Positions 1 through 19,868 of a DNA stretch of 64,000 nucleotides are shown in pieces. Within the stretch, counting starts at the first letter, position 1. Each line of letters opens with the position of its first letter. This DNA comes from Cyanobacteria bacterium P01_F01_bin.150. GTDB lineage: Bacteria > Cyanobacteriota > Cyanobacteriia > CAKZMO01. Location of the stretch: the NCBI GenBank assembly GCA_039189765.1, contig JBCCYL010000019.1, positions 1 to 64,000 on the forward strand, in the 5' to 3' direction. Both the position numbers and the translations under genes were made by a program. The notes below the pieces were generated by a model. It searched no databases. It was not told where the DNA came from and saw nothing but the letters and a program-made list of their open reading frames with translations.

Positions 1-133
1 GAGTTGGGGAGTTGGGGAGTTGGGGAGTTGGGGAGTTGGGGAGTTGGGGAGTTGGGGAGTTGGGGAGTTGGGGAGTTGGGGAGTTGGGGAGTTGGGGAGT
101 TGGGGAGTTGGGGAGTTGGGGAGTTGGGGAGTT
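1..133. repeat. Tandem octamer repeat (GAGTTGGG)n, ~16 copies, runs off the window edge
   Basis: Directly visible perfect 8-bp periodicity; cyanobacterial STRR-like repeat. Confidence 0.95.
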
Positions 134-292
134 AGGGGGTTAGTTGCTTCTGTCTTGCCGCCAGAGATCTATGAAATCTCCCCCACTTTCAAAGAGGATG
201 GGGGAGTGTGCCCTAAATTAGTTCACAGGTGCAACGAGGCGGATATTGAAATTCCTTGTTAGCTGAGGAGTGATAAGAAGTTCGCTCCCACA

Positions 293-3200
293 CTATTGGG
301 ACTTACTAGGAATCGACCAGAATTTAATCTTGCCGACTGTTACTGGGAGCTGATCTGCAACATCAATGGTAAACCGATAGACTTTGCGCGATCGCCGCCC
401 ATTTTCGGGGTCAAAGAAGGTCAGTTTCACGTCCCAACAGTCGCTATTCATTCGACAGAACGGGCTTTTTTCCACCTCAATCGTATCGAGCTGGCGTTCG
501 TTGGCAATGGCTTCAGCAAAGGTCGTGGTGGCCTGGAAAATATTAGTGGTGGCAAAGTTGAGGGCGCGATCGCGAGATAGCTGACCCACATTATGCAAAT
601 CGTTGTACACCCGATTCAAAAAGCTAGTCAATGCTTGCCGCAAAAGGTTTTCATCGACTTCAGCATCTGTTTCCTCTCTATCTAAAACCGACGCCAGCGC
701 CGACTCCACCAACGCATTTACCGTCCATCCATACATCCCTCGTACATTACGCACCGTGACCACTGGGACAATCTCACCTGAAAACAGCTCGACCGTGCGA
801 TTAGTCCGACGGGCAGGGACGCTAATGCGTTCGACAAACTCCAGGCTAGTTGGCGGCTGTTGTTGGCCATTCAGCATGAGCAAGAACATCTCATAAATAT
901 CCGCTGCAAATGGCCCTTTGGGGTCTAGAGCATACACCGTATTTTGGTCCAAACTCAGGGTCCAAATTAAAGATTTCCCTTCTTCAGGATGACGATCCAG
1001 ATGTTCGATCATTTGCTGTACATCATAAGGATCGGGCGGCACCATCACACCGTTGAGTTCCACCGGGGCCATAAGCTGCTTAAAGCTATCCCGTCGAGTC
1101 TCATCGCCGAAGTCGTAGTTTAGAGTACCTAGGGCGTAGACGTGGCCGGAGTGGGCGGTGGAAGGGGTGATGGTGGAAGGGGAAGCGGAGGGGCGGAGGG
1201 GCGGAGGGGCGGAGGCAGGACGAGGGGACGAGGGGACGAGGGGATGGGGGGACGAGGGCGTTACTGTAGGCTGGGTTGAGGCACGAAACCCAACGGAAGC
1301 AGAAACAGCAGGCGCTATACCCTCTGCTCCCCCTCTCCCAGTCTCCCAGTCTCCCAGTCCCCCAGTCCCCCAGTCTCCCAGTCCCCCAGTCCCCCACTCT
1401 CCCCTCCGCTGAGTACGCACAACCTGATCGCCAGCAAACGAGACAGTAACAGATTCACCAAAAAGAATGCCCATGGCTCCGGGAAGGTTCACTTTACCCC
1501 GGAGGCAGCGTTCGGGTTCGGCGGTGTCTTCGGCGGTGCAGGGGATGGCGGTATTGAGGAGGGCCATGCGAATCGCTTCTGCATCGACGGGTTTGCCTTC
1601 CTGGAGTTGGAGGCTCATGAGCAGGGCGCAGAGGCCGCTCATCACTGGGGCGGACATGCTGGTGCCTTTGAGGCGGACGGGGTCTTCGTTGGCGGGTTGG
1701 GCACCGAGGATTTCACCGCCGGGGGCCATAATGCCTTCCAGTTCATTGTTGCCGCCCCAGTTGCTAAATTTGTAGGGGGTGCCATCGGGTTTGAGTGCAC
1801 CGACGGAGAGGACGCCGGGTAAAGATGCGGGCATGCACCAGCATTCGCCTTTGTTGTTGCCTGCGGGAGCCACAATCAAAATATTGTTGTCCTGACATTT
1901 CTTCAGTGCCTGCATCAACAGTTCTTCGCCTTCACCCGTTTGGGTAGGCCGACAGGCTGCACAGTGGATAATATTTGCGCCCAGGTCTAAGGCCAGTTCA
2001 AAGGCACGGGCTAGGTTGAGGGGAGAGATAAATTCTTCGTCCTCGCCTGTGGTATTCAGTGGCACGTTGATGGCGGTACAGTTAGGGGCTAAGCCAGGGG
2101 AGGGGGTATTTTCCTGGCCCACCATGGTGCTGGTAATGTGGCAGGCGTGGTTGTCACCACGGATGCGTTTTAAGGTGGCTTCAGAAAAGGTGGCTTTGAG
2201 GACTTCGGCTTTTTCGTCCTTCTCTAAATTGTCGTTATTATCAATTTCCTGATACTTGAGGTAGTCTTCAACGGCGACTGGCTCAGTCTTTTCGTGCCAG
2301 TAGGGGAAAACTTTGGAAATATTGCCGCCCTGGAAGCAAGAGAGGCTGTGGTCAGGGTTGCCGTCGAGGATAACGAGGGTGATGCGAGGGTCGCCGAGGG
2401 TGCGATCGCGCAGGTCGCTGAGGCCGGGGATGCGATCGTCGAGGTCGTGGGGGTGTTGGGGGACGGGGGGATGGGGGGATGGGGAGACGGGGGGGCTAGG
2501 GGGCGGAGGGGCGGAGGGGGTGATGGCTGTGGGTTGGGTGGAGGAAGGAAACTCAACGGGGGCAGAGGGGCAGAGGGGCAGAGGGGCGGAGGGAGTAGCT
2601 ATGGCGATCGCCTCTACTTCCTCTGACATACCAACGTTTACCCCTACAGGGATAGCATCATCACCATCGATCAGATCAACGGTAGAGTCCGAAACCTGGA
2701 CCTCCCCATTCTTAATATCTGCCTCCCCTGCTCCCCTGCTCCCCTGCTCCCCTGCTCCCCTGCTCCCCTGCCCACTGGCTTCTACCTTAGAGTTAGGCAG
2801 AGAACCCAGCATAAACTCACCGACGGAGGATTCGACGATGTAGTCTAGACCAGTGGCTTGGGCAAAGCGATCGCTATCCCCTGCCCCTAATGAACGGGGC
2901 GCGAGTCCCATATTGGTGGCCACCAAATAAAGATTTTGATAGAGTACTCCCACATGCTTGAGCACCAGGGCATAGGCTAGGGAGCGATACTTGCGGAATA
3001 AACGACCGAACCGGGCAGTTATGACCAGCAATACCTGCGGGATGCCTTGCTCTCCACTGGACTGATGGGCATCGGTAATCAAAGCGCTGATATCAGCGTC
3101 TGAGGCATCCAGTTGGGCCAGGTGGTGGTTGAGGGGATCGTAATGATAGAGTCCTGGGTTGACCCCGTTGCAGCGACGGACCACCGGATAAATTTCCAGT

Positions 3201-4255
3201 TCGTACATGGCTCCCCCACAAGGATAGGGGCGGCGGGTTAGGTCGCCCCATTCAAAGTCAGGACCAAACTGTTGTTTAAGCAGTTCGGCTTGATCGGTGT
3301 CCAGCGTATAAATTTCCTTGACACGGGCAGTGCGGTAAAGCAGCTCACTGAGCTGGTCGATGGTGATGGGATGGTGGTCGTCGTACTCGCGGATAGATTC
3401 CCGTTTTTCGATGGCGGTGGTGAGGGTTTTATCGTGCTGGCGAATAGCGTCAATACTGAGCTGGGGCAGGGGTACAATCTGACCACTCATGGGAGGCTTG
3501 ACCACAGGAAAATCAGACCAGATATCCAGGCTTCCTTCTATGTCTCCGGTGGGATAATCGTGGCGACCCTGGCGGCTGCGGCTATGGAATAGGAGATTGT
3601 GGAAGTCCCAAAGCTTTAGGGCAGTAGATTCAGCTTCAACGGTGAGGAATCCAGTGGCCCAGAGGAGATTGAGAAACTGGTAGGCGGTTTCTGGGCCGAT
3701 TTGAGGCGGTGGCGTGAGCTGGCGCAGGGACTGGGGCTGGGCGAGTTGGGCCAAGACCGCGCTGGCTCTCCAATCCAGTAGTTTCACTCGATATTTCGAC
3801 AGGGGTGATTCCAAGACCATTGCCCCTTTATGGCTGTGCTGATAGGCAAACCGCGACAGACAGACTTCAGCATTGCTCCAGTGGGGAGCAGTGAGATTAA
3901 GCTGAGCGGTTTCCACCATGGGAATGGCGGTGGCGAGGGGCAAGACCGAGTAGTTTAACCAGCCCCGCTGATCCAATTGCTGGAGAGTGACGGCAAATTC
4001 TTCCCCTGTGGCAGTACCATCTCGCTGGCTTAAGGCTTGGACCAAGGCATCCGTGGTGGCATTGCCCTCTTGCAGTTGAGCGAGAATATCTCCCATGCCC
4101 GTTGCCGCTGGCAGAGTTAGCATGAAGCCATGATTTGGAGCCGCCTCACCAGGGGATGGGCGATCGCTGCCCCCATGACTCAAGATATACCCATTATCAT
4201 TGGTACTCACTTGAATTGTAGAGTTAAGGGAAACCGCAAACGGATAAACAGGCAT
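293..4255 (-). CDS. patG: Cyanobactin PatG-type protein: azoline oxidase + subtilisin-like macrocyclase + C-terminal DUF
   Basis: SagB/ThcOx-type oxidase motifs (RRPYPCGGAMYELEIY, FRKYRSLAY); S8 protease triad D(ILDG)/H(HACHITS)/S(GTSMSAP) with helical insertion before HACH as in PatG macrocyclases; C-terminal PatA/PatG DUF (KSPFCRMNSDCWDVKLTFFDPEN). Confidence 0.95.
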   Translation of the reverse strand: MPVYPFAVSLNSTIQVSTNDNGYILSHGGSDRPSPGEAAPNHGFMLTLPAATGMGDILAQLQEGNATTDALVQALSQRDGTATGEEFAVTLQQLDQRGWLNYSVLPLATAIPMVETAQLNLTAPHWSNAEVCLSRFAYQHSHKGAMVLESPLSKYRVKLLDWRASAVLAQLAQPQSLRQLTPPPQIGPETAYQFLNLLWATGFLTVEAESTALKLWDFHNLLFHSRSRQGRHDYPTGDIEGSLDIWSDFPVVKPPMSGQIVPLPQLSIDAIRQHDKTLTTAIEKRESIREYDDHHPITIDQLSELLYRTARVKEIYTLDTDQAELLKQQFGPDFEWGDLTRRPYPCGGAMYELEIYPVVRRCNGVNPGLYHYDPLNHHLAQLDASDADISALITDAHQSSGEQGIPQVLLVITARFGRLFRKYRSLAYALVLKHVGVLYQNLYLVATNMGLAPRSLGAGDSDRFAQATGLDYIVESSVGEFMLGSLPNSKVEASGQGSRGAGEQGSRGAGEADIKNGEVQVSDSTVDLIDGDDAIPVGVNVGMSEEVEAIAIATPSAPLPLCPSAPVEFPSSTQPTAITPSAPPPPSPPVSPSPHPPVPQHPHDLDDRIPGLSDLRDRTLGDPRITLVILDGNPDHSLSCFQGGNISKVFPYWHEKTEPVAVEDYLKYQEIDNNDNLEKDEKAEVLKATFSEATLKRIRGDNHACHITSTMVGQENTPSPGLAPNCTAINVPLNTTGEDEEFISPLNLARAFELALDLGANIIHCAACRPTQTGEGEELLMQALKKCQDNNILIVAPAGNNKGECWCMPASLPGVLSVGALKPDGTPYKFSNWGGNNELEGIMAPGGEILGAQPANEDPVRLKGTSMSAPVMSGLCALLMSLQLQEGKPVDAEAIRMALLNTAIPCTAEDTAEPERCLRGKVNLPGAMGILFGESVTVSFAGDQVVRTQRRGEWGTGGLGDWGTGGLGDWETGRGGAEGIAPAVSASVGFRASTQPTVTPSSPHPLVPSSPRPASAPPPLRPSASPSTITPSTAHSGHVYALGTLNYDFGDETRRDSFKQLMAPVELNGVMVPPDPYDVQQMIEHLDRHPEEGKSLIWTLSLDQNTVYALDPKGPFAADIYEMFLLMLNGQQQPPTSLEFVERISVPARRTNRTVELFSGEIVPVVTVRNVRGMYGWTVNALVESALASVLDREETDAEVDENLLRQALTSFLNRVYNDLHNVGQLSRDRALNFATTNIFQATTTFAEAIANERQLDTIEVEKSPFCRMNSDCWDVKLTFFDPENGRRSRKVYRFTIDVADQLPVTVGKIKFWSIPSKSQ
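1266..1294. repeat. GTAG-type REP-like palindrome inside a patG linker
   Basis: GTAGGCTGGGTTGAGGCACGAAACCCAAC; degenerate second copy near 2527-2557. Confidence 0.6.
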
Positions 4256-4276
4256 GATGGTTAAGGGAGTAAAAGG

Positions 4277-5053
4277 ATGACAGCCGCAATCGGAGAAATT
4301 ATTAGAAATGGAATAGTATTTGATGTTAAAAATTGGACAAAATCAACGTCACCTGAACAAGATTTTTTACAAACTGCTGATGCTATTTTTGATGTCCTAA
4401 AACAACGGGATATTAACTACTTATTGGTTGGAGGGGTCGCTCTATTAAGTTATGTCGATGGCCGCAATACATAGGATATTGATTTGATTTTAGACCGATC
4501 TGATCTTGACTCCGTTCCTGAAATTAGTGTTAAGAATGAAAACAAAGATTTTATTCATAGCACCTTTGAACAACTACAGGTTGATATTTTACTAACTCAA
4601 AATAAACTGTTTAGATATATTTTAGAAAAATTTTCGTCTGCAAGAAAATTTGGCGATCGCACCGTCCAATGTGTCACTGTTGAGGGACTTTTGATTCTGA
4701 AGTGCTATGCATTACCCTCTCTTTACCGACAGGGAAATTTTAGCCGAGCCAGTATCTACGAAAATGACATCTTGTTACTCCTCTTAAACTATGACGTTAA
4801 GCCTAAAACTATTCTCTCTCAATTGTCTGGCCATCTTTTACCCACTGACTTAAAAGAAGTTAAAGATATTTTGAGTGATATTCAATCCCGAATTCGGCGT
4901 TTTTCTCAACAACAGAGGGCGATGGGGGGATGGGGAGACAGGGAGATGGGGGGACGGGGAGATGGGGGGAACAAGGGGACGGGGAATATCGATAATCAGT
5001 TCATATACACTATTTTGTGCTACCCTGGACATCAGAATTTAGGAACACGATAA
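4277..5053 (+). pseudogene. Nucleotidyltransferase-family gene interrupted by an in-frame TAG
   Basis: ORFs 4277-4474 and 4484-5053 are in the same frame; joined they read LVGGVAL...GRNT*DIDL, the GG..R.T.DID nucleotidyltransferase motif split by the stop at 4472-4474. Confidence 0.75.
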
Positions 5054-5096
5054 TAATGGTAAGTAAGCAATAGATTTGATTTAGTCAAGAGGCGAT

Positions 5097-5399
5097 ATGG
5101 CACAAACACTGATTGATATCGGTAGCTTGATTACATCCAACCCTAAAATTCAGGGAGGACGCCCTATTGTGGTGGGCACTGGAACCACAGTTGGGCGTAT
5201 TGTGACTCTCTATAAACAGGGATATAGCGCAGATGATATTGTGGCTGACAAGGATTACTTAACCCTGGCACAGGTGTATGCGGCTCTTGCTTACTACCAT
5301 GCCAACCCCCAAGCCATCGAGACAGATCTGACTGAAGAAGCAGTGGAATATGATCGATTGGTCAAGCTTAAAAATGATTCAACCTCCGTATTTTCATGA
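5097..5399 (+). CDS. DUF433-family antitoxin
   Basis: ITSNPKIQGGRPIVVGT...LTLAQVYAALAYY signature; overlaps next gene (ATGA). Confidence 0.9.
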   Translation: MAQTLIDIGSLITSNPKIQGGRPIVVGTGTTVGRIVTLYKQGYSADDIVADKDYLTLAQVYAALAYYHANPQAIETDLTEEAVEYDRLVKLKNDSTSVFS

Positions 5400-5761
5400 C
5401 AGAAATTTGCTTGTATCTCGACGAAGATGCTACCAGCAATCGATTACTCAGATCACTGCGTAGTCGTGGTGCCAATGTGTTATCAACAGTTGAGGCTGAT
5501 ATGTTATCGCAACCCGATGAAAAGCAATTGGAATGGGCGTTGGCAAATAGGCGAGTCATTTACAGTTTCAATGTGAGAGATTTTTATCGATTACACACAG
5601 AGTGGTTAACAGAAGAAAAACAACACGCAGGAATTATCCTTAGTAAACAATCTCTTTCTATTGGCGATCAGGTCAAAGGATTACTAAAGCTTATTGCGAC
5701 GAAATCAGCGGAGGAGTTGGAAAGCCAGGTAGAATTTTTAAGTGCATGGATCAATCAGTAA
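5396..5761 (+). CDS. DUF5615/PIN-like toxin
   Basis: LYLDED, PDEKQLEWA..RVIYSFNVRDF, HAGII motifs; translationally coupled to DUF433. Confidence 0.85.
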   Translation: MTEICLYLDEDATSNRLLRSLRSRGANVLSTVEADMLSQPDEKQLEWALANRRVIYSFNVRDFYRLHTEWLTEEKQHAGIILSKQSLSIGDQVKGLLKLIATKSAEELESQVEFLSAWINQ

Positions 5762-5818
5762 ATCATCATCAACGCTCTCCAAAATCCCCCAGTCTCCCAC
5801 TCCCCCACTCCCCCACTC

Positions 5819-8185
5819 CTAAAACGGCATTGCCATAGAATTCATCTCCGCTTCAGTTGTTGGGGTATCGAGCCAACCCAGTTGCACGGGCACATCGTAA
5901 AGGCGACCGGGACCAAAGCGAGACCAGAAATGGCGCATTCCAGGCACGATGACTTTGACTACGTTTAGACCGATATCGGGGCGGGTTTGATCCAGCACTA
6001 GGGTTTCTAAGCCTGCTGCGCGGACAATATTGACGCAGGTCATGACATCGTCGCGGATGTCATTGCCCCAGCGTTTGGGATAGTCGGCCACGGTTTTGAG
6101 GGGCTGATCGGGGTCGGGGGCTAGATAGGGCTGGTTCTCCAGGGTGGCCTCTAGGAGCCAGGTTTTGGCATCGCCGTCGAGTTGGTCATCGGGGACTTTA
6201 TCTAGCTCTAGGCCCAGTTGGTTGACTTCGGTGAGGGCGCGAAGCACGGCGATGGTGGGATCGAGGTGTGCGCCAAAGCCGAGGATTAGCCGCTCGGAGT
6301 CGCCGACGAGGCGTTGGGAGACTCCGGCAAAAGCAGGAATGCCGAGGTCGGCGGTGAGATCCAGGACCCACAGTTTGCGATCGTTGTCGGCATAGAACTG
6401 CTGCAATTCGAGGAAATAGGGTTCGTCAAAACTGGTGAGGTCCACCGCAGGACGACGCAGGCGGTTATACCACCATAGGGCCACCGCATCGCGCTCGACT
6501 AGTTCCATAAACCCTTGTAAAATTGCTTCTTCCAGGGTGTTTCCGGCGGCGTTGCCGTTGGAGTCGGCTTTACAGAATTTCTGACCTTTGGGCAGGGGAT
6601 AGTCGTAGTAACAAAAGGCGGTGGGCAAATATTTATGGTGCTGTTCGGTGAGGGACCAAACGGGGGTCCAATCGATGGATTGGGATGGATCGAAGCGTTG
6701 GGATACCCAATCGTGGGCCGCTTGGCGATTTTGGTTAACCTCCTTACGGTTGGCATATTGGTCGTCGCTAAAACAGAGGCACACTTCGGGGTTGATGGCG
6801 CGATCGCCCAACTCTCCCAATGTCGCCCGCGTCTTCGGTTCGTCCCCCTGATAAATGCCGGAATAGCGCTCCACCGCTTCACAGAACCCGCTGGCCTGGG
6901 ACTGCTGATCGGTTTTGCCCTTGCCGGAGCTTTTATGCTTGAGGTTACTGCGCAGACCCCGCAGGGAGGTGGCGCTGCCAAAGCTATGGCCTGCGCTGTA
7001 GGTATGCACCAGGGGATTGGCCGGATCGGAGACGCGCACTAGATTGGTGACGATACCGGAAATCGGGCTAATCAGATGTTTGTAGGTTTCGACGGTTTGG
7101 CTGGGGGTAACGGCCCGGTGGCCACCGTCGCGGGTATAGTGCTTTTGGCGAGATTCTAGTTTGAGGGGCAGGAAGCCTCGCTCTTGGAGTAAATTGGCAT
7201 TGCCACAGCAGGGGCACTGGGGCCGATGGGGCAGGGCATGGGTTTGGATGTCGAGGGTGGTTTGATTAAAGGTGCGAATATTGCCTTCTAATGTGGGAAT
7301 GGACCCATCACAGTCCTCTACTTTCACCAACCACTTGGCAATTTCCGTCGCTGCTAACTGCAATCCAGTCTGCAACGTAGACGGCAGAGTGGCCCGTGCG
7401 GTGGGGAGACAGCCCACCAGATCGAGCCGTGAGGGAACGGGGGTGCTGCCGTTGGTGCCCTGTTCCTGGGCGCGCTGCTGCCGTAGTTTTTGGCGCAGCA
7501 CCGAGGTTTCCACTTCGCGATTGCCCCGAAGTCGCTGGTTGAGGCATTGCCAACAGCCCGTTTCTCCAGGGACAAAAATCGGCCCCAACCACACTACGCT
7601 GCCCATGGGTTTTATCAGCAGCCACGGTTGTTGAGCGTCTAATGCTTGTTGATCAATCTCCGCCAGCTCTGGTTGCAGATAATCATCGGTAATCACGACG
7701 TTGAGCGTTGGGGAGTTGGGAGTTGGGGAGTTGGGAGTTGGAGCGTCAGTGTTCTGCACCTGCACGCCAATATTCTGTAAGGCAGCGGTCAGAGTTGCCA
7801 AGGTTTGATCATTAATGCTGTTCCCCACCACCGTTAGCGTCACTCGTTGTTCTCGTAAGGCATGGGCGGCAGTGGTGGGCGATACTCCCAGCTCTGTCCA
7901 AAAGGCGGCGATTTCTGGCGATAATTCGGGGACCGCTTCCGTTAGATAGCCCTTCTCGTTTAAGCGATTAAGGACAAAATCAATATAGTCAGGAGGAACG
8001 TCTCCATCGAGGATTTTAACAATATCATCTAAAGTATTTTTTCCGTCAAGCAGGGGCAGGATTTGGCAGTAAAGCTGTCCGGTGAGGGCGTGGCTGGCCT
8101 GTTCGCTGAGGAGATAGACCTGCTTGGGTTCGATAATCTCAACGCGATAGTGGGGTTTGATTTGGGGAATGGTGGTTGGGTTCAT
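5819..8185 (-). CDS. patD: Cyanobactin heterocyclase (PatD/TruD family; leader-binding/E1-like + YcaO)
   Basis: N-terminus PQIKPHYRVEIIEPKQVYLL; YcaO motifs SGKGKT, EAVERYSG, SNGNAAGNTLEEAILQGFMELVERDA; C-terminal MPF. Confidence 0.95.
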   Translation of the reverse strand: MNPTTIPQIKPHYRVEIIEPKQVYLLSEQASHALTGQLYCQILPLLDGKNTLDDIVKILDGDVPPDYIDFVLNRLNEKGYLTEAVPELSPEIAAFWTELGVSPTTAAHALREQRVTLTVVGNSINDQTLATLTAALQNIGVQVQNTDAPTPNSPTPNSPTLNVVITDDYLQPELAEIDQQALDAQQPWLLIKPMGSVVWLGPIFVPGETGCWQCLNQRLRGNREVETSVLRQKLRQQRAQEQGTNGSTPVPSRLDLVGCLPTARATLPSTLQTGLQLAATEIAKWLVKVEDCDGSIPTLEGNIRTFNQTTLDIQTHALPHRPQCPCCGNANLLQERGFLPLKLESRQKHYTRDGGHRAVTPSQTVETYKHLISPISGIVTNLVRVSDPANPLVHTYSAGHSFGSATSLRGLRSNLKHKSSGKGKTDQQSQASGFCEAVERYSGIYQGDEPKTRATLGELGDRAINPEVCLCFSDDQYANRKEVNQNRQAAHDWVSQRFDPSQSIDWTPVWSLTEQHHKYLPTAFCYYDYPLPKGQKFCKADSNGNAAGNTLEEAILQGFMELVERDAVALWWYNRLRRPAVDLTSFDEPYFLELQQFYADNDRKLWVLDLTADLGIPAFAGVSQRLVGDSERLILGFGAHLDPTIAVLRALTEVNQLGLELDKVPDDQLDGDAKTWLLEATLENQPYLAPDPDQPLKTVADYPKRWGNDIRDDVMTCVNIVRAAGLETLVLDQTRPDIGLNVVKVIVPGMRHFWSRFGPGRLYDVPVQLGWLDTPTTEAEMNSMAMPF

Positions 8186-8257
8186 TTTGGTTGTTTGTTA
8201 TGTTTCGGGATGGGGAGACGGGGGGACGGGGAGACGGGGGGACGGGGAGCAGATTGC

Positions 8258-8288
8258 GTAGGGTGCATTAGCGACAGCGTAATGCACC
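8258..8288. repeat. GTAG-type REP-like hairpin between precursor E1 and patD
   Basis: GTAG-GGTGCATTA-gcgacagcg-TAATGCACC. Confidence 0.7.
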
Positions 8289-8308
8289 TTTTTGGCTATG
8301 TCGTGCAA

Positions 8309-8491
8309 CTACTCGTCATCTCCGTCGAAAGAACATTGCTGTTGGTTGGAACATGCTCCCTGGTTGGCTGGTCGCACACCCGCGCCACTAAGAGTGTCTT
8401 CTGAAAGCTCTAGCAACTCGCTGGGCAATTGCCCCGTGGGGATACGAGCAACGGGCTTTTTGGGATTAGGTGTAATTGTTTTCTTGTTCAT
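8309..8491 (-). CDS. patE: Cyanobactin precursor peptide E1 (probable core NQGACSNQQQC)
   Basis: Leader MNKKTITPNPKKPVARIPTGQLPSELLELSEDTL, RSII-like GVRPA, follower SFDGDDE; start taken at the MNKK ATG with a GGAGAG RBS. Confidence 0.92.
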   Translation of the reverse strand: MNKKTITPNPKKPVARIPTGQLPSELLELSEDTLSGAGVRPANQGACSNQQQCSFDGDDE

Positions 8492-8542
8492 GGGATTTCT
8501 CTCCATTCAAGCTTGATTGATAACAATATTGACAATAATTAT

Positions 8543-9895
8543 GGTTCATCAGGAGAAAGTATGCCTAATCAATATCTAAATGCCAACACATTAAGCACCT
8601 TAACCGGAAATTGCCAAAGTTTCTGAAACCATAACCGAGTCGTTTTATCAACTTCAACCTATTATTTAGTCCTTCCACTACTCCACTCGTTGTCCGAGTC
8701 TCAAAGTAAGCCGTTATTTCTGAAAACCAACGGTAAAGTGTTCCAATGCTATCCTTAAACGTCTCTTGGGCATCTTCCATCCAATCCATTAAGGCTAATG
8801 CACCATTCGTCCAATCATAATGATTGTCGAATATTTTTCTGAAATCTTCTCTTTGCTGATGCATTTCCGCTAGTAGTGGAAATGCTCTCTTTACCTCGAC
8901 TAACTTATCTTTCTGCTTATCCGTCAAGTTCTCTTCTGGCTTAATCAACGCATACTTACTGCCTTTAAGAATATCTTCTAAACGCGCTCTCTCCTTTTCA
9001 TCTTTAATATCTTGCAATCCTTTCTTCTCTGAAATTCTTGCCTTATTTAGCTCATCATTAATGATCTTAGAAACATGAAATCTATCCGCCACTATTTCCG
9101 CATTAGGCATCCGCTTTTTTACTAAAGTTCGATAGTTACCTGTTAAATCTATACTGACTTCCTTAATTTGGCTGAGAATCCCATCTTCCCAAGTGTCTAG
9201 CTCTTTATTGATGGCGGCATGCGTTCGACCTTCAATCAACCCAATGACTTCATTTCTATCTAGATCAACGATGACAACTACATAATCTTTATGTCCCTTT
9301 CTTAACGCAATTTCATCTATCCCTATCCGTCTTAAATTGCTAAGGTCAAAGTTCCATTTTTTTTACTCATGTATTCCAACATAGATTCAACAACGTCATC
9401 CGTAACATGATTATGTTTGGCGACGTTATGAATATCTCCATGAATCAGCTCCTTAATCACCTTCTCCGCCAAACGGTTTGTATATTGTCTGCGTTCTCCA
9501 ATAAACTCTAATGATTCACTAAAGGGTTTCTTGCATGTTTTACATTTGAATTGACGACGGTTATATCTAATAAAGACATCCTGTCCGCTGATCGGTAAAT
9601 CCTGGGCAAGATGGCAATGATTTTGGTGAACACTTCTACTGATTTTTCCACAGTGAGGGCAGGTAGCTTCTCGACTTAAATGACGAATTTCTAGAGCAAT
9701 AAAGTCACCATCATTCCGATATCCTGTAACCTCTACTCCCTCTATATTCAGTAATTCTGTTAATAATGAAATCATTCGTGGAATACTCACATATTATTTT
9801 TTAACATGCCAACTATTATAATAGTTGGACCTCCTCTCTTAAAAGGGATACAGCTATTTCAGAGGGAATTTAAGCATAGCAGGTACTGATGAGCC
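8543..9895 (-). mobile_element. ISL3-family insertion sequence, 1353 bp
   Basis: Imperfect terminal IRs GGTTCATCAG..TATGCCTAA / GGCTCATCAG..TATGCTTAA; 8-bp target duplication ATAATTAT at 8535-8542 and 9896-9903. Confidence 0.92.
8565..9790 (-). CDS. ISL3 transposase in two frames joined by a -1 shift at an A8 run (~9357-9364)
   Basis: Zn-finger CPHC/CKTC in ORF 9332-9790; shifted frame reads KWNFDLSNLRRIGIDEIALRKGH into ORF 8565-9239 with SIDL, ADRFHV, EGLNNRLKLIKRLGYGFRNF. Confidence 0.88.
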
Positions 9896-10049
9896 ATAAT
9901 TATTTAGGACGATCGCTTAATGATGCAGAAGATTGGTCCATGTTAAGACGATATTATGAATATTTTCGTGAAAATACACAACACAAAAGTCACAATATTT
10001 TAAGTTAAAAAGTTAAGCCAAAATAACAGAAAAAGCAACAAAACTAGCA

Positions 10050-10616
10050 ATGCCTAGAAAACCGAGAATCCTAAAACAGGGATACAGCTACCATGTCACG
10101 ATACGGTGCAATAATCGAGAATTTAGACTGCATCAACAAGAGTGTCGTGAGGTATTTTTGTATGCGATAAAACAAGGACTCACTAAGTTTGATTTTAAGC
10201 TGTATGCCCTGTGCATCATGAGTAATCATGTGCATTATCTATTGGAACCCAAACAGGCAAGAGAGTTGCCACATATTATGCATTTCCTCAATTGGTATAC
10301 AGCGATGTGTTTTAATCGGATGCTAAACCGGACGGGGCATTTCTGGGAAAAACGATACTTTTCCGATGGCTTTCCACCTGATGATAAAGAACGAGCCTTA
10401 AATACGTTGCGCTATATCCATGCCAACCCCAAAGCAGCGAAAATTTGCTCGGGTTTTTTCTATGATTTTAGTAACTATGGCACCTACGAGCGACTTACTA
10501 ATGATGGTCTAACTCAATGGCAAAGTGAGGGGATGGGGAGATTGGGAGACGGGGAGATTGGGAGACGGGGAGATTATGTTGATCATTGGTTGGCTGGTTC
10601 GATAGGTAATAAATGA
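10050..10616 (+). pseudogene. REP-associated tyrosine (RAYT/IS200-like Y1) transposase, apparently 3'-truncated
   Basis: YHVTIRCNNR, HUH motif MSNHVHYL, GHFWEKRY, LRYIHANP; after ~10525 the ORF runs into G-rich repeats. Confidence 0.75.
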
Positions 10617-10960
10617 GTGGGCGATCGCCTTTTTCCAGCAATGAGCTGAAGGGCGATCGCGTCTTTTGTTAGTCCTTAAAACCGGAGTAAGAAGCCCAAG
10701 AAATGGGGAGATAAGAGCAATCGCAGCTTGCCCCAGGATTGCAGTAATTGCGCAAGAGACAAAACGCGATCGCCCAGTCCCCCAGTCCCCCAGTCCAGAA
10801 GTGGGAGCGGAGGAAGTGGCGAGAGTGATGCATCTCAATCGAAATCTCCCTCCACTTTCACCCCGTCTCCCAGTCCCCTTGTCCCCCAGTCAATCCCCCC
10901 CCTGGCGCTTAGAACGGGAGGTTTGAGACTTGAACTAAGAAGTGATATGATTAGCCCAGC

Positions 10961-11137
10961 CTACTCGTCGTCCCCATCAAAAGAACAATATAATCCTATA
11001 CAAAATCCATCCGTACAACACACAACACCCGCAAGAGTTTCTTCTGAAAGCCCTAGCAGCAAAGCGCTAGGCAGTTCACCTGTAGGAGTACGGTCAACAG
11101 GTTGCTGAGGATTGGGAGTGATAGTCTTCTTGTTCAT
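10961..11137 (-). CDS. patE: Cyanobactin precursor peptide E2, 58 aa, absent from ORF track (probable core TDGFCIGLYC)
   Basis: Hand translation: MNKKTITPNPQQPVDRTPTGELPSALLLGLSEETLAGVVCCTDGFCIGLYCSFDGDDE*; AAGGAGAG RBS identical to E3. Confidence 0.92.
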   Translation of the reverse strand: MNKKTITPNPQQPVDRTPTGELPSALLLGLSEETLAGVVCCTDGFCIGLYCSFDGDDE

Positions 11138-11693
11138 GAGATTTCTCTCCTTTGAATTTCAGTTTACAACAAGATGATCGCTTAGGGCGATCGGTCCTTT
11201 CTGCGCGCAGTACGCGGAGAAACTTGATGTGATGACGGTGTGGAGGTGTGGAGGTGTCACGAAATCTTTGGCAGGGGGAATGGGAAAGGCAGGGGGGCAG
11301 AGGAAGCGGAGGGGAGTGTGTTGTTCATGGGTTGGATGATCCGAGGATGAAGGAGTGGGCGATCGCACTTTTTTCAGCAGTGGACTGAGAAGTGCGATCG
11401 CGTCTTTTGTTAGTCCTTAAAACCGGAGTAAGAAGTCCAAGAAATGGGGAGATAAGAGCAATCGCAGCTTGCCCCAGGATTGCAGTAATTGCGCAAGAGA
11501 CAAAACGCGATCGCCCAGTCCCCCAGTCCAGAAGTGGGAGCGGAGGAAGTGGCGAGAGTGATGCATCTCAATCGAAATCTCCCTCCACTTTCACCCCGTC
11601 TCCCAGTCCCCTTGTCCCCCAGTCAATCCCCCCCCTGGCGCTCAGAACGGGAGGTTTGAGACTTGAACTAAGAAGTGATATGACTAGTCCAGT

Positions 11694-11882
11694 CTACTCG
11701 TCGTCCCCATCAAAAGAACATTGCATACAATCACAAAATCTCGGTAACCCATCAGCAGCGGGTAGTACATCCGCGCCACACAGGGTGTCTTCTGAAAGCT
11801 CTAGCAAAGCGCTAGGCAGTTGACCTGTAGGAGTACGGTCAACGGGTTGCTGAGGATTGGGCGAAATAGTCTTCTTGTTCAT
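11694..11882 (-). CDS. patE: Cyanobactin precursor peptide E3 (probable core ADGLPRFCDCMQC)
   Basis: Leader ...LPSALLELSEDTL, RSII-like DVLPA, follower SFDGDDE. Confidence 0.92.
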   Translation of the reverse strand: MNKKTISPNPQQPVDRTPTGQLPSALLELSEDTLCGADVLPAADGLPRFCDCMQCSFDGDDE

Positions 11883-12102
11883 GAGATTTCTCTCCTTTGA
11901 ATTTTAGTTTACAACAAGATGATCGCTTAGGGCGATCGGTCCTTTCTGCGCGCAGGACGCGGAGAAACTTTGGTGACGGTTGGCGGGTCACGAATTCTTT
12001 TCTGAGACTGGGGGACGAGGGGACTGGGTGATGGGGAGATTGTGTTGATCATGGGTTTGATGGTTCATAAATGACGTGGGGATGTGGGGGAACGGGAAGT
12101 TT

Positions 12103-12483
12103 TTAGAGGAGCCAGTTGTTTGGAGTATTGATCATTTTGACGAGGCTTCCTAGAACTCGGTTGTAGCCTTGGTAGAGGTCTTTGGCGATCGCCACGTCCA
12201 AATATCCACATTTGACGGCAAACTTTAACCACACTTGGGTTTCCGCCGCCTCAGCTTCCGCATCACTTAGTTTGGCAATAAACGCAGCCCGATACCGACG
12301 TTTTCTCCAGGCTTCCGCTAAGTTAGCGCAAACAGACCGAGACGATCGCCGAATCTGATCCGTCAACGAGTACCGCTCCTCAACCGGAAACACCTTAGAC
12401 ACTTCAAAAATCCGCATCGCCGCTCCAAATGCCACTTGATAAACCTCTAGATCTTCGTGAGTCTTGATCTTTTTCTGATCCAT
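12103..12483 (-). CDS. Four-helix-bundle protein (23S rRNA intervening-sequence protein family)
   Basis: HEDLEVYQ..FPVEERYSLTDQIRRSSRSVCANLAEAW motif. Confidence 0.9.
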   Translation of the reverse strand: MDQKKIKTHEDLEVYQVAFGAAMRIFEVSKVFPVEERYSLTDQIRRSSRSVCANLAEAWRKRRYRAAFIAKLSDAEAEAAETQVWLKFAVKCGYLDVAIAKDLYQGYNRVLGSLVKMINTPNNWLL

Positions 12484-12489
12484 TGTTTT

Positions 12490-12598
12490 GGGACGAGGGG
12501 ATGGGGGGATGGGGAGACGAGGGGATAGGGGGATGGGGAGACGAGGGGATAGGGGGATGGGGAGACGAGGGGATAGGGGGATGGGGCGACGAGGGGAT
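12490..12598. repeat. G-rich 24-bp tandem repeat (~4.5 copies)
   Basis: Unit GACGAGGGGATAGGGGGATGGGGA. Confidence 0.9.
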
Positions 12599-13335
12599 TG
12601 TGTTGTTGATGGGTTTGATAATGCGGTAGATGGTGAAGGAATGGGCGATTGACTTTTTCGAGTAGTGAACTGAAAAGGGCGATCGCATCTTTATTTAGTC
12701 TTTAAACCAGGGAAATCAATCCAGAAAATAAGAGGAAAGAAACGATTACAACTTGACCTAAACTTGGATAAAGCATGCAAGCGGCAAAACGCGATCGCCC
12801 CTTGAAATTTCGCTAAGCTGTGGCCCCTGAAATCGCTAAGCGAACAGCAGCTACCTTGGTGAACTAGGCACGTAGAGTAATCAGTAAACTTTAAGTAAGA
12901 TCCTAAATAAATAACTTCAATAAAAGCAATCTGGTAACGCATCACTTTAGAACAGTATTTAGTTATGAACTTAGCGACTAGTCAAACGGTTTATCTTGCC
13001 GATTAGCTTACAACAAAGCACAAGTAAAGATAGTCTCAAGATATAAGTTTTTAAGTTTATTTGGGCATAATTTCTATAAAAGCATAGAAAAACAAAATCC
13101 TGGTAAAATCTCTTCTTTTTTTACAATTATAAAAATATGTTTATATTGACCGTTGGGGGAAAGATACGGCGATCGCCACTACGCAATATTTATGGGCGAT
13201 ATGTGACTATTGCCAATCATATTTGCCAATTTGATGAGCTGTTACAACCATATGAAGGATTTTAGATGAGGCATACACATTAATCTATGGTGAAGCATGG
13301 TTTAATGTCTGTCTGTTCCTATACCTATTGCTTCC

Positions 13336-13950
13336 ATGTCTCCTGCGCTTAAATTTGCCATTATTGCGGCTCATTTTTCTGTCTATATTGTGTCCGCCAT
13401 CAGCGTCTGGATATTTTCTCGCCGCAGTCAGTTCTACCAAACTACGGTGAAATTGCGATCGCTCCCCTTCATCTACTGTGGTTACGCCAGCTTTGCGATC
13501 GCCGCCAGCTACGAAATCGCTGAACATATGGCCGACGATTGGATCTATAGGAGCCAAATCTCCGGTCTCAACCGTCTGTTTTATACCTTTATCGTGGCAG
13601 GCGTTAGTCTAATTGCCATGGGCCTCAAAAAAGCCTGGTGGACTGACCTATTGCTAATCGCCAGCGTTATTATCACCGCCGTCACCTACGGCATCAACGA
13701 TAGCAAGAGCTTTATTCAAATCAGCCAGCTAATCGCCGCAGCGATTTTTGTCTACCACTGGTATGTCACCATGCGGGACTGGCGAGTATTTTTATATGTA
13801 GTCTTCTCCAATATTCTGGCCCTAGCCGCTGGTATCGTTTTGATTGCCACCGGAAATCAGGTCTGGCATGTATTTATTGGTCCCCTGTCGGCGATCGCCC
13901 TGCTAATTCTGGGCTACGTCGCCTGGGTCCGCCCCTACCGCAACGTATAG
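13336..13950 (+). CDS. Hypothetical multi-pass membrane protein
   Basis: 204-aa ORF with ~7 hydrophobic segments. Confidence 0.75.
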   Translation: MSPALKFAIIAAHFSVYIVSAISVWIFSRRSQFYQTTVKLRSLPFIYCGYASFAIAASYEIAEHMADDWIYRSQISGLNRLFYTFIVAGVSLIAMGLKKAWWTDLLLIASVIITAVTYGINDSKSFIQISQLIAAAIFVYHWYVTMRDWRVFLYVVFSNILALAAGIVLIATGNQVWHVFIGPLSAIALLILGYVAWVRPYRNV

Positions 13951-13967
13951 GTTTCAAACAGCATACT

Positions 13968-14975
13968 ATGCATATTCAGCTTTGGATTTTACTGGCAACG
14001 ACCATCTATCAGGCGATCGCCCTCCTGCTTGAAAACCAAACGCCACCCCCCGGCCAACGCATCGATATCGGTGGCTACAAGCTGCATTTATATGGTTCAC
14101 CGCCCCTTGACGCAACAGATCCCAGGGTTCTTCAAGAACCCTGGGATCTTAAGTCCACTATGCCTACGATTGTCTTAGACCACAGCTTAGGCGGCATTGA
14201 AGGCTACCTGCTAATCGATGCCCTGTCAGAACTAGCCCCTGTATATGCCTATGATCGGGCGGGCTATGGCTGGAGTGATTTTAGCCCCCATCGTCGGACA
14301 AGCGATCGCATCGTGGATGAACTAGACACCCTTCTTACCCGCGCTCAGATTAAGCCACCGTATGTGCTAGTGGGAGACTCCTTCGGCAGTTACAATATGC
14401 GCCTTTACGCCCATCGATTCCCCAAAAAAGTTGTGGGACTGGTGCTAACCGATGGCCTCCACGAGTCGGGAATGCTGGCTATGCCGTGGCAGCTAAAAGC
14501 AGTGCATTACCTATTTATTTCTGGCTTTTTAATGTCCATCGTGGGCAGTATCTTGGGTATCGTGCGGGTCTTCAATACCGTTGGCATGTTTCACTTAATC
14601 AAACCATCGTTGCGACGGTGTTCGCCCCAAGCCTTAAAAGCCGTAACCCGATCCTTCTGTCGGCCCAAACACTGGATCACCATGACCCAAGAACTGTGGT
14701 TTATGGCAACCAGTGGGCAACAAATAAAAACCGCCGATAGCTTGGGAGATCTGCCGTTGGTCAGCATCAAAGCCCGAGGATTTTTTCTGCCGTCTCCTAT
14801 TATGAGTTTGTTGCCGCTAGCCATGATCGAGCGATTACGGGAGGGGATGCATAAACGATTGCTTCAGCTTTCAACGCGCAGCCTTCAGATCAAGGCAGAC
14901 CACAGCGATCACTTTGTTTGGGTCGAACAACCACAGGTCATGATAGATGCGGTTAAGCTAGTTATAAATCAGTGA
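13968..14975 (+). CDS. Alpha/beta-fold hydrolase
   Basis: YDRAGYGWSD, nucleophile elbow GDSFG, C-terminal SDHFV. Confidence 0.88.
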   Translation: MHIQLWILLATTIYQAIALLLENQTPPPGQRIDIGGYKLHLYGSPPLDATDPRVLQEPWDLKSTMPTIVLDHSLGGIEGYLLIDALSELAPVYAYDRAGYGWSDFSPHRRTSDRIVDELDTLLTRAQIKPPYVLVGDSFGSYNMRLYAHRFPKKVVGLVLTDGLHESGMLAMPWQLKAVHYLFISGFLMSIVGSILGIVRVFNTVGMFHLIKPSLRRCSPQALKAVTRSFCRPKHWITMTQELWFMATSGQQIKTADSLGDLPLVSIKARGFFLPSPIMSLLPLAMIERLREGMHKRLLQLSTRSLQIKADHSDHFVWVEQPQVMIDAVKLVINQ

Positions 14976-15073
14976 TATTAGCTTGAAGCAAGGCATTTAT
15001 CCTACATGAATCGGTTTTTAAATGGTTTACTAAAGCCATCCACCCGCTTAGAACATCAGCAGTCCTAGAGATC

Positions 15074-16171
15074 ATGTCACAACCCAGCCTTTATATTGCC
15101 ATCACCAATCATGGTTTTGGCCACACTACCCGTAGTTCTGCCCTTGTCGATCATTTGCAACAGCAATGCCCTGACCTAAAAGTAATCGTAGCATCCACAG
15201 CTCCCCAATGGCTGATTAACTCTTATATTCGCAGCGATTATATCTACCGACCCCAGGCCTTTGATATTGGGGTGATTCAAAGTGACAGCGTCACAATGGA
15301 TAAAGAAGCGACCCTAGAAAAATTGCAGCAAATTCAAAAGCATCAAGACGAACTAATTTGTGACGAAGCAGAGTTCTTAAAGCAGCACAATGTGGGATTG
15401 GTCATCGGTGATATTCCTCCCCTTGCAACAAAAATTGCCCACGCAGCCGGAGTTCCCTGCTGGATGGCCAGTAATTTCGGCTGGGACTTTATTTATCGAG
15501 ATTGGGGAAACGACCTCAATGGGGCATTTGTAGAAATTACCGAGTGGATTGCAGACTGCTTCAGCGAGTGCGATCGCCTCTTTCGTCTACCCTTTTACGA
15601 AGCAATGTCCGCCTTCCCTACAGTTGAAGATGTGGGGCTAACAGCAGGCAGCCCCCGCTACGATAATGACGAACTGCGCCAGATCTTCGACATAACGGCA
15701 CCCAAAGAAAAAACCGTTCTCCTCACATTTGGTGGTTTAGGGTTAGCAGAAGTGCCCTATGAGGCCCTCCGTGCTCGAACAGACTGGCAGTTTATTACTT
15801 TTGACCATCAGCCCCCATCGGACTTCCCAAACTTGCTTAAAGTTACCGATCGCACCTATCGCCCGGTGGACTTTATGCCCCTTTGTGGTCAAATTGTTTC
15901 CAAGCCAGGATATAGCACCTTTGCCGAAGCGTGCCGGGTAGAGGTACCTGTCACGTCTGTAGAACGCCGCGATTTTGCAGAAGCGCCAGTATTAGTAAAA
16001 GGGCTTAAAGAGCACGCACACCATAAGCTCTTGACCATAGAGGAACTATATGCGGGAGATTGGGCCTTTTTAGATACACCGTTTAATCCACCCCAAACCC
16101 AACAAAAATTTAGGAAAGATGGTAATGAGACAATTGTCCAAGCCATTCTTCAACACTTTGAGCGTTTCTAA
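15074..16171 (+). CDS. GT-B glycosyltransferase-like protein
   Basis: NHGFGHTTR N-terminal motif, VSKPGYSTFAEA. Confidence 0.8.
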   Translation: MSQPSLYIAITNHGFGHTTRSSALVDHLQQQCPDLKVIVASTAPQWLINSYIRSDYIYRPQAFDIGVIQSDSVTMDKEATLEKLQQIQKHQDELICDEAEFLKQHNVGLVIGDIPPLATKIAHAAGVPCWMASNFGWDFIYRDWGNDLNGAFVEITEWIADCFSECDRLFRLPFYEAMSAFPTVEDVGLTAGSPRYDNDELRQIFDITAPKEKTVLLTFGGLGLAEVPYEALRARTDWQFITFDHQPPSDFPNLLKVTDRTYRPVDFMPLCGQIVSKPGYSTFAEACRVEVPVTSVERRDFAEAPVLVKGLKEHAHHKLLTIEELYAGDWAFLDTPFNPPQTQQKFRKDGNETIVQAILQHFERF

Positions 16172-16216
16172 GAAATGCTCAGTAGTCTCTCGAACGCTTC
16201 ATGACTCACATCAGAT

Positions 16217-16895
16217 TTAAGGGATGGTTGTTGCTCCATTTTCTAACTCAGTAACTAAGATATCCTCAGGTTCAAAGTGATCCAGCAGCAAGGATGATTG
16301 GGTTGAGATAATGATTTGTGTATCCACTGCCGCCGATTTAATCATAGATGCCAGCATCGAGATGGCGTGGGGATGCAAACCCAGTTCCGGCTCATCTAAC
16401 AAGATAATATAGGGCCGTTCTTCGGGCAGTTGGAGTAATAGCACTGCTAAGCAAATAAACCGCAGCGTCCCATCAGAAAGAGACGATACATCAAAATATT
16501 GATCGGAAGATGTATGTATCCACTCCAGGCGAATCTTATTTTCCTTGAGCCGTAGGGGTTCCAGCTGAAAATCTTGCAGAAAAGGAGGTATCTAGTTCAT
16601 TGGGTTGAAGGGTAATCGCATATTTAACTTCGCAAAAATCAAAGCTGAGAACAGTTTCTTGCGTAAATTTAGCTCCAAAGTGCAAAATGCGATTGGCTCC
16701 ACCTTTGTAGCTCGTGTATGGTTGAAGCCTCCCACTTCCTATCGCTGTGGCACATGCAAAGGCTTCAATAAAATTTGATTTACCTGAACCGTTGGCACCC
16801 ACTAAAATATTAATTGGGTTAAGCCTTAGGTCTGTAATTTCCCGAATGCTTCGGAACCCCTTGATTGAAATGGATTCTAAGATGTTGTTATCCAT
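16217..16895 (-). pseudogene. AAA/ABC-type ATPase (AAA_21-like) remnant with internal deletion and frameshift
   Basis: Walker A GANGSGKS in 16536-16895; LSDGTLRF and LLDEPELGLHP...STQS in another frame only ~300 bp away; ends abruptly. Confidence 0.75.
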
Positions 16896-17095
16896 AGTGG
16901 CGATCGCGAAAGCAGCAGGCTATTCCTCAAGTACTAAAGCCATAATAATCGAAGCCACCTCTTGATTGTCGTTCTTAACCTAATTAAAGTAAATACCCGA
17001 TTGGAGACCTACATATCCGTAATCGATGAGCATCAAGAAGAAGATCACACTAGTCCACATACCTTTGGGATTCTGTTCTGGGTGGAGAAAATTTT

Positions 17096-18451: not shown

Positions 18452-18488
18452 CCATCTGGAAAACAGGCTTAACCCTGAGCCTCTGGAG

Positions 18489-19052
18489 TTACAAATCTAT
18501 GGGGCTATTGGTAGATTGGCTACCCTTCTCCCCATGGATTTCTTCTAACTGAAATTGATGCTGGTCATCCAAAACCCAAGAAAACACGTCAGATGCTTTT
18601 CCAGCAGGGACCGAAACAATGATGTAGGAATACTCTGGCCATGCACAGGCGCGATCGCACTCTGACGGCACGGCTGGATGATCGGGATGGGAATGATAAA
18701 TTCCAATAATATTCAGTCCATTATTTCTGGCGTACTTTTGGGCCGCCAGCATATCTTTTGGATCAATCCAATAGCGACGTCTTGTGGTTAGGGGCTGCTC
18801 TTGCCCACCGCTGATCGGAGTATCAAGCTGAGCATCGGATAACCGATTTCGTTCAGCCTCTACCATAGCCGATTGGGCCTCATCATCCCATGCATTTTTG
18901 ACGGGCCACAGCTCCACCAGCGTTTTTAACAGCGGTTCCTTTGCTTCACTTGCATCCACATGCCCCAACATCAGCCCACAACACTCATGGGGGTAAGTCT
19001 CTTCGGCATGTTTTTCAATAGATTGAAGATGACCAGGCTGAAGTAAAAGCAT
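18489..19052 (-). CDS. JAB/Mov34 (JAMM) metallopeptidase
   Basis: YPHECCGL and YHSHPDHPAVPSECD motifs; start uncertain (19052 or 19070). Confidence 0.88.
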   Translation of the reverse strand: MLLLQPGHLQSIEKHAEETYPHECCGLMLGHVDASEAKEPLLKTLVELWPVKNAWDDEAQSAMVEAERNRLSDAQLDTPISGGQEQPLTTRRRYWIDPKDMLAAQKYARNNGLNIIGIYHSHPDHPAVPSECDRACAWPEYSYIIVSVPAGKASDVFSWVLDDQHQFQLEEIHGEKGSQSTNSPIDL

Positions 19053-19165
19053 CGGTAAATATCCAAACAATGGGTATCAACTTTAGGCGGGTAGTGTGGA
19101 CGTGGAGCGCCCACACTACCGTTCATTTTATGTCCAGATAAAACCCAAAAGTCAAACCAAGAAAT

Positions 19166-19732: not shown

Positions 19733-19868
19733 AGTAAGACTCCTGATTTGTGTTTAAGTTTGACGCTGCCAAAAAGGCAAAAGAACTCATGGGGGCGGAA
19801 GTGTAATCGAGATATTGAGAGAAACTGGAGCAGATAAGGCTGCCAGAAAAGGACGAATTAAGGACGAA

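Follow-up and report, generated by a model that had tools for sequence, protein, structure and literature searches.

Cyanobactin clusters in which several genes each encode a single product have been described before, with six such precursor genes in the arthrospiramide cluster (art) of Arthrospira/Limnospira platensis NIES-39, nine in the cyanothecamide cluster (thc) of Cyanothece PCC 7425 (PMC4663559), five in mon (PMC11774001) and up to four in pir (PMC3428304). In such pathways cleavage of the leader by PatA exposes the amine required by PatG (PMC4663559, PMC10804404, PMC10885120), and for PatG a free N-terminus is sufficient (PMC10804404). The genes patB and patC are usual in clusters and reported to be non-essential, while PatF is reported to be essential for patellamides, yet trichamide does without it (PMC4663559). 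Here we describe a related locus from Cyanobacteria bacterium P01_F01_bin.150 (assembly of 10.6 Mb in 350 contigs, 99% complete, 4.7% contaminated), lying at the start of contig JBCCYL010000019.1 (C19), the first 64,000 nucleotides (nt) of which we call the window. It holds three single-core precursor genes, E1 to E3, with intact genes for a PatD heterocyclase and a PatG oxidase-macrocyclase, and no patA. The reading that we prefer, at a probability of roughly 0.45, is that this art/thc-like locus yields thiazole macrocycles by way of a PatA supplied in trans from an independent cluster on contig C58. The genes on which this reading turns, with lengths in amino acids (aa), are as follows.

patG, 293..4255, minus strand: 1320 aa, with ThcOx, nitroreductase, S8, PatG_D and PatG_C matches and TIGR03895 at 783 bits (Pfam/NCBIfam).
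patD, 5819..8185, minus strand: 788 aa, with RRE, E1-like and YcaO domains.
Precursor E1, 8309-8491, minus strand: PF19155 and TIGR03678 above cut-off; predicted site GVRPA, core NQGACSNQQQC (11 aa), follower SFDGDDE.
Precursor E2, 10961-11137, minus strand: PF19155 above and TIGR03678 below cut-off; core TDGFCIGLYC (10 aa) by register, site GVVCC.
Precursor E3, 11694-11882, minus strand: PF19155 and TIGR03678 above cut-off; predicted site DVLPA, core ADGLPRFCDCMQC (13 aa).
Duplicated precursor unit with E2, 10648..11225, minus strand, from sequence comparison.
Duplicated precursor unit with E3, 11389..11970, minus strand, from sequence comparison.

All five genes are present in the minus-strand order E3, E2, E1, patD, patG that the first-pass annotation had given, and its assignments of PatD as heterocyclase and PatG as oxidase-macrocyclase are upheld by domains, alignment and motifs. 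By its domain content PatG is an azoline oxidase fused to a subtilisin-like macrocyclase and PatG DUF domains. The nearest enzymes come from the genome G220 (loci L023 and L024), in which, of 400 genomes sampled, the best PatG match was found, and from Scytonema hyalinum WJT4-NPBG1 (L010), with identities of 70-71% for PatD and 77-79% for the protease domain; the solved structures nearest to PatD are those of LynD and TruD, and homologues of known structure settle the enzyme folds. Aligned to PatGmac, the window PatG has both the Asp/His/Ser triad and the helix insertion, the Asp-to-His stretch running to 80 residues as against 40-43 in PatA types, and the insertion being equal in length to that of the closest relatives. 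By our own count in this alignment Lys598 is retained and Arg589 is replaced by Asp, likewise in L010 and L023; both are residues of PatGmac to which we take functional roles to attach. The Lys-Tyr motif of the oxidase is as in relatives, and the domain search found no kinase insert of the dolichospermamide-cluster type. Neither frameshift nor stop interrupts patD and patG (6.3 kb) or the three precursors, and the six 8-nt repeat arrays in patG leave its frame intact. Most private substitutions are conservative: PatD has 8 (22 sequences; 6, 9 and 11 in clade neighbours), the oxidase part of PatG 1 (20 sequences) and its DUF part none (40 sequences).

The three precursors preserve leader and follower, and each carries one core whose last residue is Cys, followed by SFDGDDE. 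Core boundaries were assigned by register, that of E2 being uncertain because its protease site, GVVCC, is atypical. At one core per gene and 11, 10 and 13 aa, they agree with the single-core precursors and the range of 10-13 residues expected from the first inspection, which had also recognized no known cyanobactin among them: no word of 5 residues is common to the cores and the homologue sequences compared, and three core fragments are absent from the literature searched, which did not extend to subscription journals. Within the precursor family, 74 of the 84 homologues have one follower (always after Cys), 2 have several and 8 none; many are labelled Limnospira or Oscillatoria cyanobactin RiPPs (peptides made on ribosomes and modified after translation), and cut sites across the family are highly variable. 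The E2 and E3 units are 94-96% identical in their flanks and identical in the follower, as against 49% in site plus core, and on that comparison look like recent duplicates with exchanged cores.

The locus is without patA, patB, patC and patF. Positions 1-20000 of the window hold no remnant of patA, patB or patC, and no patA was found in the 74 kb of contig upstream or in the likely adjoining contig C52. Searches of the genome for patC and patF returned no match, and the positive controls gave no signal either. Of the features of a complete cyanobactin cluster, the precursors, PatG with triad and insertion, PatD and the oxidase are thus present and an in-cluster PatA, patB and patC are not. 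Across the whole genome (G000) two TIGR03895 matches exceed the cut-off, the window PatG and a PatA on C58. The latter, with its catalytic triad present, belongs to a PatA-only cluster (L001:2968-12649) that also comprises the only patB-like gene of the genome, two precursors and an LCM-family methyltransferase, with a patatin nearby. The C58 precursors have leaders ending in GVDAS and amphipathic-looking cores led by Gly-Phe-Leu-Asp, with no follower, which suggests peptides that are probably linear and membrane-active and possibly C-terminally methylated; precursors of this type have only 3 protein matches and no description in the literature searched. The layout recurs in 3 of 400 other genomes (G293, G387, G414), each with one such protease and neither PatG nor PatD, and the tree sets C58-type PatAs apart from the clade of D/G-linked PatAs with support of 100. 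For these two reasons C58 is an independent system and not the lost half of the window cluster, and a relocated cognate PatA is ruled out. A second group of single-PatA loci (L053, L054 and L055, in G193, G244 and G106) forms its own clade in the PatA tree. On another contig of the same genome (C64; L036:268-3333) neighbouring genes encode an S8 protease and, separately, a PatG_D/PatG_C protein; a gene of 340 aa that fits no known family precedes them.

Under the reading in which C58 supplies the missing protease, PatD would bind the leader and convert core Cys to thiazolines, and the PatG oxidase domain would convert these to thiazoles, both in line with established chemistry. PatA acting in trans would cut after GVRPA in E1 and DVLPA in E3, after which PatG would cut off SFDGDDE and join the ends; the locus would be expressed, and its ancestral A-B-C half would have been lost from a G220-like cluster. 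With all Cys as thiazoles, the predicted [M+H]+ values are 1122.38 for E1, 1380.47 for E3 and, if the odd site is cut, 1033.39 for E2; for the thiazoline forms of E1 and E3 the values would be 1126.42 and 1386.52. The published leader-cleavage consensus is G(L/V)E(A/P)S (PMC10885120). The GVDAS of the C58 leaders has Val at P4 and a small residue at P1, as do VRPA in E1 and VLPA in E3. Because C58-type PatA-only clusters are so rare, it is unlikely that one of them and an A-less cluster share a genome by chance; C19 and C58 match in composition, with no sign that contamination lies behind their co-occurrence.

Several observations weigh against this account. The C58 PatA stands outside the D/G-linked clade, every C58-type substrate observed has Ser and not Ala at P1, and the GVVCC of E2 fits no consensus. 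The protease domain of the window PatG has 10 private changes, the highest of 8 compared (1-8 in the others), and no patF match was obtained, with positive controls equally silent. Nor do intact D and G prove function, since a cluster in the nearly complete genome G442 (L013:7608-16119) keeps B-C-D-G intact, lacks patA and shows no precursor. There is also decay beside the enzymes: an ISL3 element with a perfect target duplication sits directly upstream of E1-patD, 52 nt away, a facing TnpA-REP transposase gene is truncated and a passenger gene is broken by a nonsense codon. These, with the want of any cognate patA, make it quite possible that the locus is a decaying remnant whose A-B-C half was deleted without replacement, and which makes no macrocycle and at most leader-bearing heterocyclised intermediates. 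Inactive cyanobactin clusters are reported to be common (PMC4558948, PMC3428304); besides the G442 cluster, the inactive pir of NIES-843 offers a precedent (PMC3428304), and 16 genomes of the same family have no such cluster. Decay sits poorly, however, with enzyme genes and three precursors free of frameshift or stop, with repeat arrays kept in frame and substitutions that are mostly conservative, and with the presence of a second, rare PatA in this genome.

Two further explanations would supply the protease from elsewhere. The cognate patA could be present in the organism and missing from a fragmented assembly, so that the cluster is ordinary and complete; none of the 350 contigs is shorter than 1655 nt, the contig breaks 292 nt beyond patG, and the G220 cluster is itself split by an assembly break. 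We think this improbable: relatives carry patA on the precursor side, where the sequence here is continuous for 74 kb, and completeness is 99%. Among free contig ends, only the start of C52 consists of the pure repeat that opens C19, which makes the C52-C19 join a candidate, judged from matching contig ends only, but the genes on C52 are unrelated. A slighter chance still attaches to removal of the leader by some other protease, either the split pair on C64 or a housekeeping enzyme, with PatG cyclising or releasing the product, perhaps from other N-terminal boundaries. Cut sites in the family do vary, PatG needs a free N-terminus only, and the C64 pair does place an S8 gene ahead of a PatG_D/PatG_C gene; its match of 120 bits, however, compares with a family cut-off of 421, its context is different, and nothing ties it to E1-E3. 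Of the initial inference that the locus makes macrocycles, then, the D and G enzymes and the E1-E3 precursors stand, and an in-locus patA to provide the required free N-terminus does not. Should the C58 PatA mature E1-E3, two independent RiPP clusters would be using one protease, and activity may be found in clusters of the kind set aside as incomplete in genome mining; the cores themselves, as three undescribed thiazole macrocycles, would be a modest gain.

The layout is ordinary for its relatives. The G220 cluster reads A-E, contig break, E-E-E-B-C-E-RAYT-D-x-DUF5615-DUF433-G, with passenger genes 73-79% identical to those of the window, so that by gene content and identity the window is the G220 cassette minus A-B-C, with a gene order that it has inherited. 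E is located upstream of D in L010, L012, L014, L015, L016, L017, L018, L019, L020, L021, L023 and L031, which rules out gene order as a novelty. The first-pass annotation had singled out the multiple single-core precursors and the non-patellamide order as unusual, and both are already described or common; the points that merit follow-up, neither of which it mentioned, are the absent PatA and the geometry of the TnpA-REP gene. As observations on the relatives themselves, the long PatC-like open reading frame of G442 (328 aa) contains an inserted domain, and in the heterocyclase-bearing cluster of Scytonema hyalinum (L010:8288-12853) PatG combines oxidase, macrocyclase and a protein kinase insert; kinase inserts as such are described in PMC12639078.

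The remaining features of the locus include the TnpA-REP gene and its predicted fragments.

8-nt tandem repeat at the contig start, 1..141, plus strand: assembly break just downstream of patG.
Nucleotidyltransferase-like gene, 4277..5053, plus strand: one internal TAG breaks the read-through frame; no Pfam match in either half.
DUF433 and DUF5615 pair, toxin-antitoxin-like, 5097..5761, plus strand: Pfam; 73% and 78% identity to the G220 copies.
ISL3 element, 8543..9895, minus strand: 8-bp target duplication ATAATTAT; end 52 nt upstream of the E1 start.
TnpA-REP/RAYT-family HUH gene facing E2, 10050..10616, plus strand: Y1_Tnp; 79% identity to the G220 cluster copy.
Probable TnpA-REP 3'-end remnant, 10900..10926, plus strand: PWRLEREV-stop at 34 nt from the stop of E2; equalled or exceeded in score by 32 of 5000 random windows.
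Probable TnpA-REP 3'-end remnant, 11633..11659, plus strand: PWRSEREV-stop at 34 nt from the stop of E3; equalled or exceeded in score by 46 of 5000 random windows.
Four-helix-bundle (23S rRNA IVP-like) gene, 12103..12483, minus strand: Pfam/NCBIfam.

The translated TnpA-REP gene has the HUH motif HVH and the Y---NP motif YIHANP, which together are the signature of class 2 TnpA-Y1 (PMC6006769). Its NF047646 score of 61 bits lies below the cut-off of 80, and full-length relatives also score 55-65. At 188 aa, as against 250-275 in relatives, with homology ending near residue 157 where short repeats start, the gene is, by this comparison, truncated and its C-terminal extension gone. Downstream of E2 and E3 a TGA closes the motif P-W-R-x-E-R-E-V in register with the tails of relatives, and among random windows the DNA profile puts the two tails in the uppermost 0.6% and 0.9%; it has no match at E1. 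We regard them as probable, if weakly supported, remnants of the TnpA-REP 3' end, the support consisting of the DNA profile and the stop spacing alone; the protein profile of the tail has no match at either remnant, and nhmmer tail matches that overlap the precursors' own 3' ends were not counted.

The association extends well beyond the window. A TnpA-REP homologue or fragment occurs in 20 of the 33 clusters compared (window included), six of the 20 (L092, L094-L097, L100) having been chosen because of such a match. In the draw of 400 genomes, A/G clusters were found in 25, and TnpA-REP in 11 of the 21 that were scored; in four of the negative clusters no precursor was detected in the stretch examined. 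For G220 and G443 the cluster copy is the sole TnpA-REP match at E<=1e-20. A tail profile built on the last 45 residues, with a threshold of 25 (the best of 1000 random windows reached 7.0), was applied to 48 of 53 precursor genes. Among single-core genes beyond the window, 26 of 40 have an antisense TnpA-REP tail downstream by this profile (19 of 33 when the seven used for training are left aside); the five multi-core genes and the three genes of the window have none. Because kin among them are not independent, the counts do not amount to a statistical test. An intact TnpA-REP stop codon falls 30-33 nt from the precursor stop, in heterocyclase-bearing and anacyclamide-type clusters alike, and the tail is often repeated after each of several tandem precursors. 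In the TnpA-REP tree the cluster copies and two solo G318 copies form a clade (support 99), to which the truncated window copy is sister (85). Solo copies (L067-L081) are likewise arranged tail to tail, with genes of other kinds; from some 23 solo loci 10 long facing genes were picked, and each of them has a GUN4 domain. These GUN4-ending genes have varied N-terminal domains (kinase, TIR and others).

A link between tnpA-REP and prochlorosins has been called unique to picocyanobacteria, with the later note that there is no strong evidence for or against causation (bioRxiv 10.1101/2020.03.09.984088). Prochlorosin-associated TnpA-REP proteins show 47% identity to the G220 copy, and one of these copies faces a Nif11-leader gene. 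In the literature searched, preprint supplements not included, we found no report of a link with cyanobactins: what there is amounts to passing mentions that art and sph have a transposase between E and F (PMC4663559 for art), and to a hypothetical open reading frame of 271 residues after pirE4 (PMC3428304). One might suppose that TnpA-REP has been active in copying and diversifying single-core cyanobactin precursor genes, which we consider rather unlikely. On that supposition the duplicated unit would be a precursor with the facing 3' end of the transposase gene, in the same geometry as for prochlorosins, and the E2/E3 pair would be a product of TnpA-REP activity, processed at present by the PatA of another cluster. 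Hitchhiking explains much of the pattern with no enzyme activity at all: one old insertion whose tail was retained as the 3' region through tandem duplication. The idea that TnpA-REP is specific to RiPPs is unsupported, given solo copies that face GUN4 genes and the two solo G318 copies within the cluster clade; the family seems to adjoin, tail to tail, the ends of multiplied genes in general. What is at stake is how cyanobactin precursor genes multiply while changing only their cores. The fixed facing arrangement at about 30-35 nt names a testable enzyme and target site, and extends a link thought unique to prochlorosins; were the activity real, one single-stranded DNA recombination system would lie behind the hypervariable cores of two unrelated RiPP classes.

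The five cyanobactin genes are not contiguous. The ISL3 element and the TnpA-REP gene lie between E2 and E1, and between patD and patG there are, at 4277-5761 on the plus strand, the DUF433/DUF5615 pair, which occupies the same place in the G220 cluster, and a broken gene that, judging by a motif, is probably nucleotidyltransferase-like. The ISL3 element is single-copy in the genome at this identity. Its transposase occupies two frames that overlap at a run of A, which, we infer, resembles programmed frameshifting. Promoter-like sites are at chance level (15 vs 13.3 +/- 4.0), so that nothing points to a hybrid promoter at the ISL3 junction. The four-helix-bundle gene occupies the spot where relatives have patA/B/C or further precursors.

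For the precursors, the depth of E1-E3 in the contigs of one sequencing run containing this DNA is 33-46, and those contigs hold no fourth copy at the organism's depth, so that collapsed extra copies are rejected; a single 3x contig bearing a related leader is probably from another organism. A diversity-generating retroelement was likewise dismissed, there being no reverse transcriptase on C19 and the four-helix gene scoring below the Avd cut-off; read by eye, the core differences between E2 and E3 are indels and mixed changes, not adenine-specific, which also speaks against such an element. Elsewhere the genome has five reverse-transcriptase matches, three of them clustered at C68:19541-23656 and the others on C2 and C48. 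The conserved 5' regions of E2 and E3 (11138-11232 and 11883-11975) contain two short hairpins (z about -2), found at this locus only among the genome contigs searched and at most candidates for the REP palindromes that would flank a TnpA-REP gene. Rfam gave no known RNA family in positions 1-14000.

Set beside the described systems, the window resembles the inactive pir cluster of Microcystis NIES-843 in its several single-core precursors, insertion sequences and want of a working PatA, but in pir D and the oxidase are lacking and PatA and PatG remain in place in broken form, whereas D and G of the window are intact and A is absent (PMC3428304). With the tnpA-REP/procA pairs of marine picocyanobacteria, in which the gene or a C-terminal fragment faces the precursor at a conserved distance and precursors join a conserved leader to an indel-rich core, the likeness is one of geometry and of protein family; those are lanthipeptides (bioRxiv 10.1101/2020.03.09.984088), while the partner in the window belongs to an unrelated RiPP class and its TnpA-REP copy is truncated. 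The G220 cluster shares the E-RAYT-D-DUF5615-DUF433-G layout and single-core SFDGDD followers; it and L010 retain A, B and C, as the window does not, and the PatG of L010 has a kinase insert that the window PatG lacks. Thc, with its thiazole/thiazoline macrocycles, is a parallel in its non-standard PatA sites such as SNCIG and in an extra precursor elsewhere in the genome, but it has its own PatA, methyltransferase and transporter, none of which is in the window (PMC4663559). Art is alike in its several single-product precursors beside D and an oxidase-bearing G and in a transposase next to the E genes (PMC4663559); the window precursors fall in a family with members labelled Limnospira cyanobactin RiPPs and show the art-family leader and S(Y/F)(D/E)GD follower in several single-core genes. 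Art, however, runs from A to G in the usual order, F included, whereas the window is without A, B, C and F and has E before D. Because patA is absent, we file the window as a variant and not as a complete cyanobactin cluster, yet one that would function like art and thc.

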